NCBI GenBank assembly: GCA_021814615.1
Contig: JAKAHZ010000002.1
Location: 17,011 to 81,010 of the forward strand
Direction of reading: 5' to 3'
From: Nitrospirota bacterium
GTDB taxonomy: Bacteria; Nitrospirota; UBA9217
Length of the DNA: 64,000 nt
The position numbers and the translations under genes were made by a program. Below the pieces are notes generated by a model that was not told the origin of the DNA, ran no database searches, and saw only the letters and a program-made list of their open reading frames with translations. Positions 17-8,279 of the stretch are shown piece after piece. Every line of letters starts with the position of its first letter. Position 1 is the first letter of the stretch.

Positions 17-1285
17 TCAATCCAGGTCAGAGCCATGGTCCTCCTTCCTTCCGCCGTGCGCTGTTGGCGATGCATCCGACCGACTGCGTCCTGCGGCTTC
101 GCGCAGCATGAAACGCATGGCCAGGGGCGCAAGCAGCGTCGTCAGCGCGACGACGAAGACCACGACGGCATAGGACGCATCGTCGAAGATCGCGCTCCGC
201 TTCCCCACTTCGGCAAAGATGAGCCCGACCTCGCCGCGCGGAACCATGGCGATTCCCGTCGAGAGTTTTTCCCTGAATCCGCCCGGCGCCCATATGCCGC
301 TCGCCATTTTGCTTACCACGGCGACGACCGTCAGGACGCCGGCGAATCCCCAGAATGCGCCCGATGTCATGTCGATGGCCCGCAGGTTGATCGAGACGCC
401 GACCATGACAAAGAAGACCGGCACAAAGAGATCGATGATCGGCGTCATGCTTGCCTCAAGCTGCTCGGCAAGCCGATGGCTGTAATGGTCGATGCTCGCT
501 CCCAGAGGGAGAAAGAACCGTCGCGCCAAAGCTATGCCCGCGGCAAAGGAGCCCAGGATCTCGGGAGCGCCCACGCGGTGCGAAATGACCGCAAGTCCGA
601 GGATCAGCGATACGATCAGCGTCGGGATCATCCCCTTGGTCCGGCCCGAATCGGCCAGTCTCGCCAGAAGGGGCACGAACAGCTTGGCGATCACCGGCGC
701 GAGAATGAGAAAGATGAGAATAAAAACGAGGATCCGCAAGGTCGCTGCGATGCTGACGGTCCCCTGCACCGCAAAATCGTAGAGTACCGCCAGAACCACC
801 ACCCCGATCACGTCATCCAAGACCGCCGCGCCCAGCACAATGCGCGCCATGCGGCCGGTATGCCGGTTCAAATCCTTGAGCACGCGCACCGTGATGCCGA
901 TGCTCGTGGCCACGATCGTACCTCCGACAAAGAGCGCGGGGATCGTCGCCATGCCGAACCCATAGCGGGACACCCAATAGCCGAAGGCGCCGGGGACAAC
1001 GACTCCCGTCACGGCGACCAGCGTCGACCGGACGCCCTCCTTCACGAGCTGCCCCACATCCGTCTCGAGCCCCACCTCGAAGAGCAGCAGCAGGATCCCG
1101 ATCTCCGCGAGCAGGTGCAAAGGCGTTTCGGGCGCGACAAAGCCCAGGACGCTGGGACCGATCACCAGCCCCGCAACCACCTCGCCCAGCACCGACGGAA
1201 TCGCCAGCCGGCTGGCGGACTCCGCGAACAGCTTGGCGGCCAGGAGGATCACCAGCAGTTTGAGAAAGAAATCGGAAGCCTCCAT
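17..1285 (-). CDS. Monovalent cation:proton antiporter (CPA2, KefB/NapA-like)
   Basis: Polytopic hydrophobic protein with LLLFEVGLE, ATSIGIT, GAAVLDDV and MVPRGEVGLI motifs; start moved to MEASDFF (ATG at 1285). Confidence 0.9.
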   Translation of the reverse strand: MEASDFFLKLLVILLAAKLFAESASRLAIPSVLGEVVAGLVIGPSVLGFVAPETPLHLLAEIGILLLLFEVGLETDVGQLVKEGVRSTLVAVTGVVVPGAFGYWVSRYGFGMATIPALFVGGTIVATSIGITVRVLKDLNRHTGRMARIVLGAAVLDDVIGVVVLAVLYDFAVQGTVSIAATLRILVFILIFLILAPVIAKLFVPLLARLADSGRTKGMIPTLIVSLILGLAVISHRVGAPEILGSFAAGIALARRFFLPLGASIDHYSHRLAEQLEASMTPIIDLFVPVFFVMVGVSINLRAIDMTSGAFWGFAGVLTVVAVVSKMASGIWAPGGFREKLSTGIAMVPRGEVGLIFAEVGKRSAIFDDASYAVVVFVVALTTLLAPLAMRFMLREAAGRSRSDASPTAHGGRKEDHGSDLD

Positions 1286-1312
1286 CGCGCCTGCACCCCC
1301 CCTGTACAAAAC

Positions 1313-1354
1313 AAAAAAGGCCGGCAGAAGCATTTGTCATGCCCTTTGCCAGCC
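1313..1354 (-). terminator. Intrinsic terminator inside the antiporter 5' leader (attenuator-like)
   Basis: Minus-strand stem GGCTGGCA...TGCCGGCC followed by TTTTTTGTTTT, about 28 nt before the start codon. Confidence 0.7.
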
Positions 1355-1419
1355 CCCTTTCCCGCGAAACAGCTTTTCGCGAGCGCGTCAGTCCGCCAAA
1401 AAACCCTATGTTCGCTTTT

Positions 1420-1448
1420 AGTATACGCACGAGAGCATCCCCTGTCAA
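1420..1448 (-). promoter_or_regulatory. Sigma70-type promoter
   Basis: Minus strand TTGACA-17 nt-TATACT. Confidence 0.75.
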
Positions 1449-1470
1449 CTGCGTGGATTGTTCCTCGGCA

Positions 1471-2478
1471 TTATCTCTCATTGACGACGTGTCCCGGAAT
1501 TGCCTTGCAGACCACAAACCAGAACAGGAACGGTGCGGCGATTCCGAATCCCCGGACGGTCCACATCACCGTAATCAGTGAAGGCTGATCCAAACCGCTC
1601 GCAAAAGCCACCGCGTATGCGGCGAGGGTTGCACTATGCTGAACACATAACAATCCGACGGCCAAAGCTCCGCGTTGAGCCGCTGTTGCTCCCTGGTTGA
1701 AGGGAAGGGAACCGCCGACGAGAGCGGCAACAATGATGCCGTTAAAAACCTCAAAAAACAGATCCACGTGCAGGATGCCGCCGGCCGTGCGCAACAGCAC
1801 TACTCGCCCCCGGCTCGCGACCTCCAGCCCTGCGCTTGCTCCCGCTCCCACGATGTGCAGCAGCCCGTTCGTTGCCGCAGCAATACACCGCGCATAATCG
1901 TCGATTGCCAGAAGCATCAGCCCCAAAGCGCAGAGGCCGGCAAGAACCGACAAACCGACGGCCTTCGCGGTTTTTCTCGTGATTCGGACGCTTCTCGCAA
2001 CCCAGAGATACCAGGTGACGAACACGGCGACGGCAAAAACGCCTTGCAGCAGGTAGGCATGGACGAGATCAAAGAGATTTCGCGCATAGTTCCCGACCAT
2101 GCCAAGCACGCCGATACGGATGATATTCATCGAAAAGACCACCGCGACGCCCGCTGCTATGCCGACGCCGCGATACGCTCGGGAATATGCCGGATGCGCG
2201 ACAACACCGGCGCTGAATATCGCCAGGTAATGCAAGGCCGTGCACTCGTGCGTAATTTCCATGGGAAAGGCAAACAGCGTCAGATAGGGCCCCGACTGCG
2301 CAACGGGGCCCGCAAAAAGCCCCCAGAATCGCGCAGCGACGCCGGCGGTGAAGCTGTTCAGCCAGGCAAGCGAAAGCAGCTGCGCAAGCGCCAGGAATGC
2401 GGTCGCATAGAGGGCGAACAGAAGAACGAATCGTCCGTTCAGACTGACGGCCTCCCAAGTGTCTGCATGGTTCCGCAT
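1471..2478 (-). CDS. Exosortase/archaeosortase family protein (XrtH-like) with an extra C-terminal membrane domain
   Basis: Catalytic-triad motifs ITHECTA (Cys), MNIIRI (Arg) and LVHAYL (His) in a multi-TM protein; AGGAG RBS before ATG 2478. Confidence 0.8.
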   Translation of the reverse strand: MRNHADTWEAVSLNGRFVLLFALYATAFLALAQLLSLAWLNSFTAGVAARFWGLFAGPVAQSGPYLTLFAFPMEITHECTALHYLAIFSAGVVAHPAYSRAYRGVGIAAGVAVVFSMNIIRIGVLGMVGNYARNLFDLVHAYLLQGVFAVAVFVTWYLWVARSVRITRKTAKAVGLSVLAGLCALGLMLLAIDDYARCIAAATNGLLHIVGAGASAGLEVASRGRVVLLRTAGGILHVDLFFEVFNGIIVAALVGGSLPFNQGATAAQRGALAVGLLCVQHSATLAAYAVAFASGLDQPSLITVMWTVRGFGIAAPFLFWFVVCKAIPGHVVNER

Positions 2479-2588
2479 AGGACTCCTCCCCTCCTTTCCC
2501 GGCAGTGGCACCCGAGACCCGCGGTCGATGAATGCCGATCCGCACGGGCCGGGAGAAACCTCCCGCCCGCCGGATCGACTTGCTCTCT

Positions 2589-4292
2589 CTAGCGTGTTTC
2601 AGCCCGCTTCTTGCGACTCCGCTGGGTAACGAAAAGCACCATGCCGGCGGCAAGGACTGCATAGACATACGCATTTCCGGCTGGTGACTGTGTTACGCCC
2701 GCAGGCGGTGCACCTGTTCCGACCGTGGACGAGACCGTGCTGCTCGTAACCGCCCCGTGGTTCGCATCCGCTGCCGTGGTAACGCTGGTTGTCGTGCTGG
2801 ATCCGTTCGCCGCGCCCGCCGTCGCGCTGACCGTGAGATTCGTCGTCTGGAAGGATCCCCCCGTGATGGGGCCGATCGTCGCTGCCAGCGTCGAGGCGTT
2901 GAAATTCGCGTTGGGCGCTGCAGGAACATCGGCGGACGACAACGCAAAGGTCGTGTCCGCGCAGGACGCACTGTCATTGTTCGTAACCTGGACAACGTAG
3001 GTGATCGATCCGCCCGGAGCCAGGGTTTGCGAGGCCGGCGACAGGGTTATCGCGGGATTCGCCCGGGTGCAGACCGGGGCAGAGATGGTCAACGTGGCCG
3101 ATGCCGTATCGCTGTAGGTCGGCGTTCCGAGGGTTCCGGACGCGCCCGTGACCCGCGCGCCCAGAGTGTTCCCGACGGTCGCGCCCGACGCTATATTCGC
3201 GGTGATGAGATAGTTCGCGGTCGCTGTGGAAACGTTCTCCGGCGACGTGAAGGTCACCGTGGCCGTTCCCGCTCCGATCGAGAACGAACTCGGGACCAAC
3301 GTATCGACGCCTGCGTCATATACGCCGAGCGTGCCGGCATCCAGGTAAACGCCGATATTCGTCACATTTGCCGCCGTGAACTGCGCGCTCGTCGTGAGCG
3401 TGAGGGTGTTGATCTGACCGGCGCCGGACGACATGGCCGTGGTGAAGCTGTCGATTGCATTGTTGGTCGAGCCCTGCTGAGCGTTCGCATTTGCCACTGA
3501 CGCGCCGTCGCCGACGGTAAGATTGCCGGAAGCGCCGGATGCGGGATTGATGGTCGTGAACGCGAGACCGGCATAGGTGTTACCGGTCCAGGTGAGTGCC
3601 GGTCCCGTTGCGCCGGCGCTGGGAAAGGATTTAACGGCCACGCAGGAATACGCGGTGCCGACCGTTTGAGGCGTGTTCCCGGTGTATGATTCGTTGTTCG
3701 TGGGAGCCCCGGCCAGGCTCTGGGTGGATCCGAAGATGCCGTATCCGCCCGCGTTGACGTTGAGCGTGCCGAGCGTGACGGATGCCGTATTGCTGTTGTA
3801 GATCTGGTAGGTCCCGTTGATCGGGGTCGTCTGGTCCACGCCCGCGAGCGTTGCGATATATACGCTCATTCCGCTTCCCACGTTGTTGTTTGTCACAGTG
3901 ACGGTAGTTCCCGACGCGGCGGCGATGTCGGATTCGTTGAGGTAAAAGAACCAGCTCTGCCTTCGTTGATTATTCGGCGAGTTCACGATCGCGCGAGCGG
4001 GAATGTTATTGGTTCCGTAGGAGACAGTGATCGTCGTTGCCGTCGTGTTGTTGGTGTGATCGTGAACGCTGATCAGGACGATCCTGTTCGAACCCGCCGA
4101 GGGCGTGAACGACGTCGTGGCGGGTGATGCGGCGACATTGGCGATCTGAGGCGCGGCAGGCCAGGGATCCAGCTCCGATACGGCGGCTTGAGCCTGTTGC
4201 GGGGCAATCCATCCCGTCGACGCCAGCGCGCAGAAGACGGCGGCCAGCAGCAGGATAACTATGTGTCGATTGTTCCGTGTATATTCGTTCAT
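2589..4292 (-). CDS. Secreted Thr/Ser/Ala/Asn-rich surface protein with C-terminal sorting signal (probable exosortase target)
   Basis: Signal peptide ending AQA-A, beta-rich Ig-like domains, tail SPAGN + hydrophobic helix + RSRKKR; GAGGAG RBS before ATG 4292. Confidence 0.85.
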   Translation of the reverse strand: MNEYTRNNRHIVILLLAAVFCALASTGWIAPQQAQAAVSELDPWPAAPQIANVAASPATTSFTPSAGSNRIVLISVHDHTNNTTATTITVSYGTNNIPARAIVNSPNNQRRQSWFFYLNESDIAAASGTTVTVTNNNVGSGMSVYIATLAGVDQTTPINGTYQIYNSNTASVTLGTLNVNAGGYGIFGSTQSLAGAPTNNESYTGNTPQTVGTAYSCVAVKSFPSAGATGPALTWTGNTYAGLAFTTINPASGASGNLTVGDGASVANANAQQGSTNNAIDSFTTAMSSGAGQINTLTLTTSAQFTAANVTNIGVYLDAGTLGVYDAGVDTLVPSSFSIGAGTATVTFTSPENVSTATANYLITANIASGATVGNTLGARVTGASGTLGTPTYSDTASATLTISAPVCTRANPAITLSPASQTLAPGGSITYVVQVTNNDSASCADTTFALSSADVPAAPNANFNASTLAATIGPITGGSFQTTNLTVSATAGAANGSSTTTSVTTAADANHGAVTSSTVSSTVGTGAPPAGVTQSPAGNAYVYAVLAAGMVLFVTQRSRKKRAETR

Positions 4293-4514
4293 GTTTTCCG
4301 AACTCCTCATGTTATTGACAGGCTCGCTGCACGGACGAGGGGCCGTGCTCGTCAAGGCCGGAATGCCGCCTGCAGGCGCATCCGTTCCTTTTCGCCGCAG
4401 CGGGGGCAAAACCGCATGGCGAGGTCAACGGGCGCGCATGCCGTCCTCGGCGCACCTCCGCTGTCAGCGCGGGCCGTCATGGTTTTGGGAAAGGGATTGA
4501 AAATGCTGTTGTGT

Positions 4515-4973
4515 CTAGGAAAGCAACGCGGGGGGAGACAAGCCGGTATTCAGTACGAGATAGCCGTCAGTTTCACGCAGGAGCGGGGCCGGTGTTTCGC
4601 GGAAAATAACGGATGCCGTTTCCGTCTCAAAACTGCTCTGAGGAAGAATGAGGATCCTGATGGTTGGTCTGAGGTCGAGGCGCTGGCGCACGATGGTGCG
4701 TTTCTTCCTGACCAGCACAATATCTCCGTCCTGCTGTGTACCGATGGCCTGGGTGTCGCCGGAAGGAGGCTCATAAGCGTCGTCATCATCGGACAGACAG
4801 GCAAAAATAATGTTCTCCCAGACAATATCGGAGGGGGAATGCTTGACCGCCTTGCCGGACTTCGTCCCGAAGCACTGCCCCGCACCGACGGCGTACATGG
4901 ACACCGGAGTCAGTGCATAGAGAGCATAGAAAAGGAAAAAAATCCGACCGATTACGCGCGTTTTATGCAGCAT
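4515..4973 (-). CDS. Membrane-anchored hypothetical protein ending GLSPPALLS (paralog of 7693-8133)
   Basis: N-terminal TM; shares FLxYxxYAxxP, IVWxN, DGxxxLxxKKR and GLSPP with the ORF at 7693-8133. Confidence 0.75.
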   Translation of the reverse strand: MLHKTRVIGRIFFLFYALYALTPVSMYAVGAGQCFGTKSGKAVKHSPSDIVWENIIFACLSDDDDAYEPPSGDTQAIGTQQDGDIVLVRKKRTIVRQRLDLRPTIRILILPQSSFETETASVIFRETPAPLLRETDGYLVLNTGLSPPALLS

Positions 4974-5048
4974 GGGTCATTGTACCATGTTTTATACTGC
5001 CCAACAAGTTTTATTATACTTTACTATTTTTTCGTGAACGTCATGTCT

Positions 5049-6836
5049 TCACGCCAGCCCGCCCTCTTTCCGGAGGACCTCCCGGTTGTACGCCGCGATC
5101 ACGTCCCTGCGCCGCACCATGCCGATGACGCTTTTCGAACCTGCCTCCCGCACCACGGGAATCTCCTCGATATCCTTGACCGAGAACTTTTCCATGGCCT
5201 TGTTCAAATCATCGTCAGGCGTGAGCACCATCACCTTTTCCGTGGCGATGTCCCCCGCATTCACGATGCGGGTGATCCGTTCCTCGAGCAGCACGGGACG
5301 CACGTCGTGGATGGAAACGATCCCCAGGAGGTCGCCCGACGCATCGACCACGGGGAGATAAAACCGCTCCTGCTCGACCATGATCTCCAGCAGACGGCGC
5401 AACGGCGTCTTGGGCAGGACCGTCGTTACGTCGGAAACCATGACCTGGGCGACCTTGATGCGGCCCATGACCGATCGTTCCTTGCCCGCATGAAGCCGGA
5501 TGCCTCTTCTCGCGAGTTCCGCCGTGTCGATGGAGTCATGGTACAGGCGTTTTGCGATCATGGTGCCGATGATGGCGCTGAACATGAGCGGGACAATGAT
5601 CCGATAGTTGCCCGTCATTTCAAAGAGCAGGAATATGCCGGTGAGCGGAGCATGGGTTGCCGCTGCCAGGAACGCGCCGATCCCCACGGTCGCATAGGCG
5701 CCGGGAGTCGCCGTTGCCTGGGGGAACAGGGCATGCGCCACATACCCGAAACTGCCGCCGGTCATTGCTCCGATGAAAAGCGCCGGCGCAAACACGCCGC
5801 CCGCTCCGCCGGAACCCAGGGTGATGGATGTGGCCGCGATCTTCATGAGCACCAGGAGGGCCAGGACGGGAAAGAGCATGTCTTGTCGCAGCGCCGACTC
5901 AATGACGCCGTAGCCGTTTCCCATGACCTGCGGCAGGAATATGCCGATGCACCCCACCAGAAACGCTCCAAGGACGGGCTTCAGTTGCGGATGGAGCCTC
6001 AGGGCGTCGAACTCGTCCTTCAGACGATAGAAGGTCCGGATATAGAAGACAGCGGCCAGACCGGTGACCACGCCGAGCAGGAGATAGAGCGGGAGTTCAG
6101 CGATACTCTGGAGCTCGTACTGCGGAACAAGGAACGCGGGATTGGCCCCGTAGTAACCGCGGGAGACTACCGTCGCCATGCCCGAGGCGATCACAATGGC
6201 GGCGAAGGAAGCGATCTCGTAATCGCCGAGCAGCACGATCTCGGTGGCGAACATGACGCCGGCAATCGGCGCGTTGAAGGTTGCGGCAATGCCGGCCGCC
6301 GACCCGGCTGCGATCAGGAGCTTCGTGCGGCCTTCCGATGTGCCGAGGAAGCGCCCGACCGCTGAGCCCACGGTCCCGCCGATGATGGCGATCGGCCCTT
6401 CGACGCCCGCCGAACCGCCGGAGCCGATGGTAAGCGCCGGCCCGAGGATCTTGAGCATGATATTCCGGAGTTTCAGGAACCCGCCCCGGATGTTCACCGC
6501 TTCGAGAAAGCCTGCGAATCCGTACCCGTTCACTTCGCCGGGAAAGCGGAGGGACAGGGGAATGAGCAAGAACGCGCCGGTCATGGGCAGAAGCGGGAGG
6601 AGCAGGCTGCGCCAGCCTCCCGATGCGACACCGAGCAACCGGGACCCCTGCTCGAACACGACCATATGGACGAAATGGAGGGTGGAACGGAACAGGATGT
6701 TCGCTGCAGCGGCCAGGAGCCCGACTATGACGGAGGAGAACACGAGGAACATGCCTTCGTTCGCCCGCATGTCCGCTCCCAGGCCCTGGACCCGGCGCAG
6801 CATCTTCCTCAAGTGCGTGGACACGTCATCATTCAT
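5049..6836 (-). CDS. CLC chloride channel/transporter with C-terminal CBS pair
   Basis: GSAGVEGP, AATFNAPIAG and GGVFAP motifs, then two CBS domains. Confidence 0.92.
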   Translation of the reverse strand: MNDDVSTHLRKMLRRVQGLGADMRANEGMFLVFSSVIVGLLAAAANILFRSTLHFVHMVVFEQGSRLLGVASGGWRSLLLPLLPMTGAFLLIPLSLRFPGEVNGYGFAGFLEAVNIRGGFLKLRNIMLKILGPALTIGSGGSAGVEGPIAIIGGTVGSAVGRFLGTSEGRTKLLIAAGSAAGIAATFNAPIAGVMFATEIVLLGDYEIASFAAIVIASGMATVVSRGYYGANPAFLVPQYELQSIAELPLYLLLGVVTGLAAVFYIRTFYRLKDEFDALRLHPQLKPVLGAFLVGCIGIFLPQVMGNGYGVIESALRQDMLFPVLALLVLMKIAATSITLGSGGAGGVFAPALFIGAMTGGSFGYVAHALFPQATATPGAYATVGIGAFLAAATHAPLTGIFLLFEMTGNYRIIVPLMFSAIIGTMIAKRLYHDSIDTAELARRGIRLHAGKERSVMGRIKVAQVMVSDVTTVLPKTPLRRLLEIMVEQERFYLPVVDASGDLLGIVSIHDVRPVLLEERITRIVNAGDIATEKVMVLTPDDDLNKAMEKFSVKDIEEIPVVREAGSKSVIGMVRRRDVIAAYNREVLRKEGGLA

Positions 6837-7034: not shown

Positions 7035-7583
7035 CTATTGCGCCACGAAATCGTCGCGCCGGTTCTTCTGCCAGCATGCGTCCGTATCCTCGGTGCACGC
7101 AGGCTTTTCCTTCCCGTAGCTGACAAGCGAAATGCGCTTCGCCGTGATCCCCATGGCGGTCAGATACTTCTTTGCCGATGAGCTCCGGCGCTGCCCGAGC
7201 GCCTGATTGTATTCGATGGTGCCGCGGTCGTCGCAGTTCCCTTCGATGGAGATCTTCATCTTCGGATTTGCCTTGAGATACTCCGCGTTCGCCTTCATTG
7301 CCGCCTTCGCGTCCTCCCGGATCGTTGCGCGGTCATAATCGAAATATACGGCCTGCAGGCCTGCGTTGGCGCGTGCCGCGGCCTCCTTTGCCTGTTCCTC
7401 CTCCGCTTTCCGCGCGGCGGTCGGTTCGCTGCTTTTCGCTCCCTCGGCAGCCGCAGGCGCGGGCGCGGCCGCCACCTTCTGAGCCTCCGGCGTGGAACTT
7501 ACTTCCGTTTTCTTGGGACAGCCGGCAAGGACGACAAGTCCGAGACCGGCGATCATCATCAGAAACCAATGCGTCATCTTCAT
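7035..7583 (-). CDS. pal: Peptidoglycan-associated lipoprotein (OmpA-C domain)
   Basis: Lipobox LAGC; VYFDYD, IEGNCDDRGTIEYNQALGQRR, SYGKEKP and KNRR motifs; AAAGGAGG RBS. Confidence 0.92.
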   Translation of the reverse strand: MKMTHWFLMMIAGLGLVVLAGCPKKTEVSSTPEAQKVAAAPAPAAAEGAKSSEPTAARKAEEEQAKEAAARANAGLQAVYFDYDRATIREDAKAAMKANAEYLKANPKMKISIEGNCDDRGTIEYNQALGQRRSSSAKKYLTAMGITAKRISLVSYGKEKPACTEDTDACWQKNRRDDFVAQ

Positions 7584-7692: not shown

Positions 7693-8133
7693 TCAGAGGA
7701 ACAGAGGAGGAGAAAGGCCGAGGTGGCGCGACAGCGCCTGATCATCATAGGGAGAAAAGAGATGCAGGGAAATCTCGCGTGCCCGCGGAGGCAGGCCCTG
7801 CATGTTCAATCCATCGGCACGTACCGTCGCTCCGAACAGCGGCTCGATGCGAAGCGAATCGGGAAGGACCGCCCGTTTCTTCTTGATGAGGATGAATTCA
7901 CCGTCCCGATCATCGGGGTCCCCGCTCTCGATGGCGGGCCGCTCCGGCCGGTCATGATCGACCAGGGAGGCAAGCAGCGCATTGACCCAGACGATTCCCA
8001 CGGTCACGCCTGACCCTCCCGCCGTCAAATCGCTTCTCCCGACAAAGGCGGAAGCATAGATCGGCGAGACGGCATAGACGGAATACAGCAGGAAGACGAC
8101 AACCTGAACCGCATATTTTATTCGCGCGTTCAT
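7693..8133 (-). CDS. Membrane-anchored hypothetical protein ending GLSPPLFL (paralog of 4515-4973)
   Basis: Start at MNARIKY; same motif order as 4515-4973. Confidence 0.75.
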   Translation of the reverse strand: MNARIKYAVQVVVFLLYSVYAVSPIYASAFVGRSDLTAGGSGVTVGIVWVNALLASLVDHDRPERPAIESGDPDDRDGEFILIKKKRAVLPDSLRIEPLFGATVRADGLNMQGLPPRAREISLHLFSPYDDQALSRHLGLSPPLFL

Positions 8134-8279
8134 CGGTGATATAGTAGCGCGGCCGGCAGCGCGCGGCAAGTAATTTCTCCCGCCCCGCCGTTTTCCGCGG
8201 CTGCGTGAATCCCTTCGGTTTTTCGGGCTGTCCGTCCCGATCCGCGATCTTCCCGGATTCTGCTGCCCGCGATTCACTC

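Follow-up and report, generated by a model that had tools for sequence, protein, structure and literature searches.

Do an exosortase gene and the single surface-protein gene beside it form a sorting system of their own, with a signal that existing families do not cover? The question is raised by two neighbouring genes in a 64,000-nucleotide stretch of DNA from a Nitrospirota bacterium (GTDB lineage Bacteria; Nitrospirota; UBA9217), here called the window (assembly GCA_021814615.1, contig JAKAHZ010000002.1, positions 17,011 to 81,010 of the forward strand, read 5' to 3'). We propose, with a probability of roughly 0.8, that the locus is a dedicated three-gene surface-protein sorting cassette consisting of a small membrane protein, a target and an exosortase, in that order. 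The proposal starts from what was seen directly, namely the genes, a conserved motif, the catalytic residues, a fusion within the enzyme, strict adjacency and genome-wide co-occurrence. The cassette is a rare variant of known bacterial surface-protein sorting and leaves the principle of C-terminal sorting unchanged. The features on which the argument turns are the following:

2589-4292, minus strand: target surface protein, 567 amino acids (aa) plus stop, with an open reading frame (ORF), a signal peptide-like start, three beta-rich domains and a tripartite C-terminal tail
2673-2687, minus strand: signature motif SPAGN of the tail (family consensus V-P-[AVI]-G-[NS], P and G invariant)
2625-2672, minus strand: hydrophobic transmembrane segment of the tail, 16 residues, AYVYAVLAAGMVLFVT, read from the sequence and lying in an AlphaFold2 (AF2) helix at residues 541-566
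2592-2624, minus strand: basic C-terminal cluster QRSRKKRAETR, read from the sequence
1471-2478, minus strand: long-form exosortase, 335 aa plus stop (ORF, signature models, GGAGG before the ATG)
1984-2436, minus strand: exosortase catalytic domain, residues ~15-165 (TIGR04178, PF09721, invariant residues)
2242-2244, minus strand: Cys79 of the enzyme
2116-2118, minus strand: Arg121 of the enzyme
2059-2061, minus strand: His140 of the enzyme
1474-1965, minus strand: fused C-terminal membrane domain of the enzyme, residues 172-335, related to the exosortase H-associated membrane protein

The target gene starts with an ATG at 4292, preceded ~10 nt upstream by a GAGGAG Shine-Dalgarno sequence, and stops at 2589-2591. 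At its extreme C-terminus the protein carries a motif, a hydrophobic helix and a basic cluster, the three elements that define a tripartite signal in a preprint whose author curates these families (10.1101/2023.06.07.544157). The AF2 model (13 homologues, mean predicted local distance difference test score (pLDDT) of 70) is all-beta from residue 39 to ~525 and ends in the helix at 541-566. An earlier note on this DNA had described a secreted, beta-rich protein of ~567 aa with an SPAGN, transmembrane and basic tail, followed by an exosortase gene with Cys, Arg and His motifs. The ORF at 2589-4292 and its all-beta model agree with the first description, and the second is borne out by the signature models and by the invariance of Cys79, Arg121 and His140.

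The tail recurs in the relatives described below with the consensus [V/S/T]-P-[A/V/I]-G-[N/S] (VPxGN type), followed by the helix and the basic cluster. Among 18 non-redundant tails the first motif position is V in 16 and S or T in one each, the second is always P, the third is A in 14, V in 3 and I in 1, the fourth is always G, and the fifth is N in 14 and S in 4; P and G are likewise unchanged across the 11 aligned tails. The serine of the window's SPAGN is a minority state, and VPAGN is the family consensus. None of five tails scanned alone against NCBIfam matched any model at E<=10, while two IPTL control tails in the same scan passed TIGR04174 (40.0 and 22.1 bits vs 20.5), and the scan is therefore capable of detecting short signals. 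The NCBIfam release of June 2026 holds no model matching these tails.

A profile of the 11 tails, searched against 5.8 billion proteins at E<=0.01, returned 19 matches, all 19 carrying the motif and eight of them absent from the model. Their source records call them 'hypothetical protein' or 'Calx-beta domain-containing protein' and assign them to Thermodesulfovibrio sp., to a Nitrospirae, Nitrospirota or Nitrospiraceae bacterium and, once, to a Chloroflexota bacterium. The proteins that bear the tail are otherwise dissimilar: BLASTP (E<=0.001) matches none of P0165-P0168 and P0176 to the window's protein (P0001). The passenger homologues P0008 and P0009 have no tail, and a third, P0015, ends in an IPTL-CTERM instead. 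These comparisons support the view that the VPxGN tail is a conserved module beyond the existing CTERM models. The earlier note's suggestion of a new 'PAG-type' CTERM stands in so far as the tails lie beyond the NCBIfam models (5/5); its name does not, the conserved core being xPxG[N/S] and not PAG. Of the checks it had proposed, scoring both proteins against the NCBIfam CTERM and exosortase models yielded no match for the tail and, for the enzyme, a score above the cut-off with the generic signature only, and a hidden Markov model (HMM) built from the tails of the neighbours of orthologous exosortases recovered a conserved motif together with co-occurrence.

This co-occurrence can be followed within one genome and across the phylum. 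In the window's own genome (94% complete), two exosortase genes and no more score above the cut-off of the signature. The second, on another contig, encodes a paralogue 46% identical to the window's enzyme and follows the gene of a paralogous target, whose tail consists of TPAGN, a helix and a basic cluster, so that the genome holds two diverged paralogous pairs (46% and 67% identity). Over the 28,383 ORF ends of this genome the tail HMM gave two matches (59.2 and 56.9 bits; next 11.0), each adjoining one of the two exosortase genes. We then used the enzyme-family profile to survey 401 genomes of the phylum, taking long-form places at E<=1e-63, and found 10 high-scoring long-form places in 8 genomes. 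A VPxG[NS]-tailed gene lies directly upstream at nine of the ten, the exception being genome G128. A metagenome scan with a profile of 10 closer enzyme sequences added loci L039 and L041; the tail of a further locus, L040, equals that of genome G003 and was counted once. All 11 non-redundant tail genes (the window's and 10 further) are directly upstream of the enzyme gene on the same strand, with a gap of 4-189 nt.

Searching for the tail leads to the same genomes. The tail profile has nine strong matches (55-76 bits) among the 401 genomes, in seven of them, and the next-best match (21.7 bits) covers the hydrophobic part only. All seven tail-bearing genomes carry the enzyme clade, and they are the eight enzyme-bearing genomes minus G128. 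The number of tails equals the number of clade enzymes in six genomes, with two of each in the window's own genome and in G369, and one of each in G003, G239, G311 and G179. The adjacency of tail and enzyme is beyond chance. Dedicated one-to-one sorting systems are recognised by regular enzyme-target adjacency, according to the same preprint (10.1101/2023.06.07.544157), and this is the pattern found here. The one-enzyme/one-target system proposed in the earlier note is thus matched by equal counts in six genomes and by genes that are always adjacent; the second pair in the genome, the fusion within the enzyme and a third conserved gene are additions to it.

The third gene precedes the target:

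4515-4973, minus strand: small conserved membrane protein, 152 aa, directly upstream of the target; putative third gene of the cassette

Its product has an N-terminal transmembrane helix with a Y..SP motif, a central KK.R and a C-terminal GLSPP, and P23, K90, R92, G144, P147 and P148 are invariant in the family alignment. In 9 of the 10 VPxGN loci with upstream sequence (L041, where this is missing, was left out) a homologue is the gene immediately before the target, the exception being G369:C8, and five of these homologues were found by an HMM that did not contain them (E 2e-17 to 6e-14). The family also occurs beside the long-form enzymes of G128 and L044. Two more paralogues in the window's own genome are located away from exosortases (window 7696-8145, minus strand; G000:C129:8784-9275, minus strand), and the family therefore has a role wider than the cassette. 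The small protein has no Pfam or NCBIfam family and the ESM Atlas offers no usable family; a complex prediction between the enzyme and small-protein families scored 0.00, which is evidence neither way.

The enzyme gene begins 110 nt downstream of the target gene on the same strand. Its ATG at 2478, with GGAGG upstream, gives 335 aa, the length also found in the database record, and a GTG at 2511 would give 346 aa. The product passes the generic exosortase/archaeosortase signature (TIGR04178, 42.6 bits vs 23) as well as Pfam PF09721 (30.9 vs 25.7), with the model match limited to residues ~27-175 and the remainder without a match. Neither an alignment of 4 sequences nor one of 30 shows any variation at Cys79, Arg121 or His140. 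The Cys-Arg spacing is 42, vs 41 between Cys173 and Arg214 of archaeosortase A (ArtA), and from this spacing, rather than from an alignment to ArtA, we infer that Cys79 and Arg121 are equivalent to the critical residues of that enzyme. A Foldseek search of the PDB with the enzyme model found no match at E<=0.001, and a sequence search of the PDB none at E<=1.

Assignment to a named subfamily is less direct. The enzyme falls below the cut-off of every named subfamily model, with XrtH (TIGR04177) the best at 64.7 vs 86 bits, followed by exosortase X (NF046081) at 53.6 vs 170 and ArtB (TIGR04144) at 50.0 vs 150. A word-based homologue search retrieved only the enzyme itself and one relative, and a contig scan one locus; an exhaustive profile search, run over 1.84 billion representatives, brought up 2536 relatives at E<=0.001, of which 40 are at E<=1e-30. 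Among the best 150 of these 2536, 68 are 290-450 aa long and 77 are shorter than 260 aa. All 54 long-form homologues that were scanned pass the generic exosortase signature and none reaches any named cut-off (best XrtH score 83.1 vs 86, P0027); two of six short forms pass that of XrtH. Judged by these scores, the enzyme is an unclassified relative of exosortase H.

The enzyme is about twice as long as XrtH, owing to its second domain. At short-enzyme loci, the ORF directly downstream matches positions ~165-325 of the long-form profile (7 ORFs, 21.7-41.0 bits). Against NF041730, the model of the exosortase H-associated membrane protein, two of these seven ORFs score above the cut-off of 35 and five below, and an hhalign comparison of the long-form second half with the ORFs gives a probability of 97.1% (E 6.8e-11, 144 columns), vs 33% for the first-half control. 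The C-terminal half of the window's enzyme alone has no match to NF041730 at E<=1. Because the downstream ORFs of short enzymes match the second half, because NF041730 matches among them and because of the hhalign result, we identify the enzyme, at the level of sequence, as an XrtH-like exosortase naturally fused to a domain like the XrtH-associated membrane protein. The two domains presumably work as a single unit. Such a fusion serves as Rosetta-stone evidence for a physical collaboration between XrtH-type exosortases and the XrtH-associated membrane protein, and it bears on how minimal exosortases work. In the AF2 model of the enzyme (pLDDT 88.4, predicted template modelling score 0.77) the same order of elements, two helices, three strands and three helices (H-H-EEE-H-H-H), occurs twice, and hhalign of the N-domain against the C-domain gives a weak match (probability 29%, E 5.8e-4). 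The second domain may therefore be a degenerate copy of the exosortase fold, an internal duplication suggested by the model and undemonstrated by sequence.

In a maximum-likelihood tree of 54 exosortase domains (supports given as ultrafast bootstrap/SH-aLRT, the Shimodaira-Hasegawa-like approximate likelihood ratio test), a branch (92/78) separates the 11 enzymes that have VPxGN neighbours from all others. Their sister group comprises four long forms without such neighbours (L016, L042, L043, L044), and together they make up a well-supported long-form clade (99/92). This clade adjoins one of short enzymes from the same phylum, and several of those short enzymes have IPTL-tailed neighbours; the join is weak in a quick tree (77). 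A second group of long, fused forms is found elsewhere in the tree (L006 in G005, L025 in G151, L026 in G161). The upstream neighbours of this group end in [T/V]PALG.W, a helix and a basic cluster, and one of these tails just passes the IPTL cut-off (22.1 vs 20.5). Fused enzymes therefore also exist outside the VPxGN clade. A description of the PALGxW-tailed targets as sedolisin-like was dropped, as the only domain that Pfam detects in the available fragment is a divergent InlB B-repeat.

Two of the sister long forms have a neighbourhood of their own. At L016/L067 (G128:C66) and at L044, a long-form enzyme of the same clade lies beside the small protein and a 700-741-aa protein containing Big_5, which ends in ...PWK.YFILN....HTLT[IL]Q and has no membrane helix there. 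This Big_5 protein may represent a different kind of partner or signal.

How the cassette would work can be outlined from archaeosortase A, the one model with an experimental footing on which we draw. ArtA cleaves a tripartite PGF signal, lipid attachment follows, and Cys173, Arg214 and Arg253 are critical, according to a review (PMC9263693). By analogy with ArtA, from which we derive export, cleavage site, acyl-enzyme chemistry, acceptor and final location, the target would be exported by the Sec pathway via its N-terminal signal peptide and would be retained in the cytoplasmic membrane by the C-terminal helix, the basic cluster facing the cytoplasm. The neighbouring exosortase would recognise [V/S/T]-P-x-G-[N/S] at the outer membrane face, Cys79 of a Cys79/Arg121 centre would attack, and the helix and basic tail would be removed. 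The mature protein might then be handed to an acceptor (lipid or glycan) or be released for display at the cell surface.

Several points weigh against this proposal. Cleavage, acceptor and localisation are drawn purely by analogy, and the third critical residue of ArtA, Arg253, has no obvious invariant counterpart in the enzyme, which has an invariant His instead. The genomes are kin, belonging to three family codes (f1, f11, f24), and co-occurrence overstates their independence; that the tail-linked enzymes are monophyletic is moderately supported (92/78). The high scores of the tail profile come from the very loci that supplied its sequences, and the independent support that it provides consists of the absence of extra matches and of the eight database tails outside the model. 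Long-form enzymes without a VPxGN neighbour exist in G128 and at the metagenome loci L042 and L044. At G369:C8, finally, the enzyme frame (L069, 717-1526, minus strand, 270 aa) matches the first domain only (profile positions 10-178), and a VPVGS-tailed target precedes it; this enzyme may be frameshifted, truncated or otherwise broken.

Two of these points lend some weight to an alternative in which the tail is a permanent, uncleaved C-terminal membrane anchor and the exosortase-like protein acts on another substrate or in a non-proteolytic way. Cleavage of the target is argued by analogy, and the same-clade long forms of G128, L042 and L044 indicate that the enzyme can exist without the tail. 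A mere anchor, however, would not need a P and a G outside the helix that are invariant in 18 tails and on unrelated passengers, nor would its distribution follow that of the enzyme one-to-one, leaving no orphan tail among 401 genomes, and the catalytic Cys and Arg are conserved. We consider a permanent anchor improbable and prefer a signal read by the neighbouring exosortase.

Somewhat less probable still is that the locus holds an ordinary XrtH/IPTL-CTERM system, merely too diverged for current cut-offs, and no new class. Going by the names of their models, XrtH pairs with IPTL-CTERM targets. A literature search, judged by its list of hits, brought up no paper on this system; one of the hits, the preprint epsSMASH, mentions 'exosortase H' twice. 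The likeness is considerable: among named models XrtH scores best on the enzyme, whose catalytic domain belongs to the minimal type of ~150 aa, the long form P0027 nearly reaches the XrtH cut-off (83.1 vs 86 bits), both signals start with a V/I-P dipeptide and continue with a helix and a basic cluster, a domain related to the partner membrane protein (NF041730) is fused to the enzyme here, and P0015 combines the same passenger domain with a true IPTL tail. The suggestion in the earlier note of a distant IPTL-CTERM/XrtH variant is consistent with this, given XrtH as the best model, tree neighbours with IPTL tails and the IPTL-CTERM of P0015. Yet the window's enzyme scores 64.7 vs 86 bits and none of the 54 long forms passes any named model, the tail is not recognised by TIGR04174, and five of five tails lack an IPTL match at E<=10 under conditions in which the controls pass. 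The motif is VPxG[NS] here vs IPT[LM][ST]EWG there, with different residues after VP (AGN vs T[LM][ST]EWG). The comparison of tail-set profiles is weak (probability 60.6%, hydrophobic part only), the tail-linked enzymes form a clade of their own, and here enzyme and partner-like domain are one polypeptide, each enzyme has strictly one target and an extra small gene lies upstream. We therefore favour a dedicated system related to, and distinct from, XrtH/IPTL-CTERM.

It is highly improbable that the two genes adjoin by chance or are a decaying or non-functional remnant, for the rare and patchy distribution of the pair (7/401 genomes) and the possibly truncated copy at G369:C8 are set against two intact frames with Shine-Dalgarno sequences, two diverged paralogous pairs (46% and 67% identity) kept in one genome and a gene order conserved across three family codes.

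With the cassette as the preferred reading, the exosortase catalogue gains a sorting-signal class together with its cognate enzyme clade. A new pair of HMMs would improve the annotation of Nitrospirota genomes, in which such proteins are now 'hypothetical' or 'Calx-beta domain-containing'. A one-enzyme/one-target cassette with a short motif also suits the biochemistry of exosortase cleavage, which in bacteria is largely inferred.

Other known systems resemble the cassette in part. ArtB (TIGR04144) with its VPXXXP-CTERM shares a short exosortase-type domain and a signal starting with VP, and neighbours of short metagenome homologues carry VPLFSP, VPLLSP or VPVLMP tails; the window's enzyme, however, scores 50 vs 150 bits, and in its tail family the second proline is absent and a (near-)invariant G-[NS] is found instead. 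Profile comparison of the VPxGN tails by hhalign gives probabilities of 60.6% for IPTL, 37.3% for PALGxW and 78.0% for VPxxxP (the last against a set that included one IPTL tail, L064), values too weak and alignments too short to name the nearest signal. ArtA with its PGF-CTERM in Haloferax volcanii has in common the superfamily signature, a tripartite signal and a Cys and an Arg at similar spacing (PMC9263693). It differs in being archaeal and larger, with many targets, a PGF motif and a prenyl-lipid acceptor. The JDVT-CTERM system is likewise recognised by the regular adjacency of an enzyme and a single target, but 10.1101/2023.06.07.544157 describes its enzyme as a glutamic protease of the CPBP/Rce1 type and its signal as having an invariant Cys, whereas the pair considered here consists of an exosortase and a target whose motif lacks Cys.

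Two further features belong to the remainder of the target:

4182-4292, minus strand: signal-peptide-like N-terminus, residues 1-37, ending AQA-A, as read from the sequence
3543-4178, minus strand: N-terminal beta domain, residues 39-250 (homologues; pLDDT ~80-90)

The N-terminal stretch, MNEYTRNNRHIVILLLAAVFCALASTGWIAPQQAQAA, resembles a signal peptide by inspection, and residues 2-27 are a helix in the AF2 model. A scan of the whole target against Pfam and NCBIfam found no Pfam family and no relevant NCBIfam family, and Foldseek with the target model returned only generic strings of Ig-like and beta-sandwich surface proteins. For the N-terminal domain, the structural neighbours in the ESM Atlas (template modelling scores 0.71-0.79), some of them in Laminin_G_3 clusters, serve as a lead only. 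Elsewhere the domain occurs in fusion with Calx-beta repeats, multihaem cytochrome modules or an IPTL-CTERM tail. P0015, for example, has this passenger domain and a true IPTL-CTERM, and P0008, P0009 and P0014 combine it with multihaem cytochrome modules (precomputed Pfam PF14522, PF14537, PF22113) without a sorting tail. Its fusion to multihaem cytochromes hints at a role at an extracellular redox surface.

Taken jointly, these features allow us to speculate further, in terms that we regard as rather unlikely as a whole. The cassette could be a self-contained three-part machine, in which a catalytically dead second domain of exosortase fold forms an obligatory pseudo-dimer with the catalytic domain, the small protein acts as a third component (e.g., acceptor, carrier or chaperone), and the system places a surface component for redox or mineral contact. 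If the pseudo-dimer were true, free XrtH and its 'associated membrane protein' would work as a heterodimer.

The genes flanking the cassette encode a Na+/H+ exchanger, a CLC channel with CBS domains and an OmpA-family protein, and give no functional hint. A scan of positions 1200-5300 for promoters and terminators found 3 promoter-like sites vs 1.2 expected and 3 terminator-like sites vs 4.2 expected, and is uninformative for the limits of an operon. A search of sequencing runs turned up no RNA data. The small-protein paralogue at 7696-8145 lies just upstream of the OmpA-family (Pal-like) gene at 7038-7583.

Among the metagenome loci, L048, L053, L054, L056-L059 and L061 have short exosortases whose upstream neighbours end in VPALSP, VPLLSP, VPLFSP or VPVLMP followed by a helix and a basic cluster. 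Several of these VPXXXP-like loci also have an XrtH-associated-like ORF downstream, and the partner protein therefore accompanies VPXXXP-type systems too.

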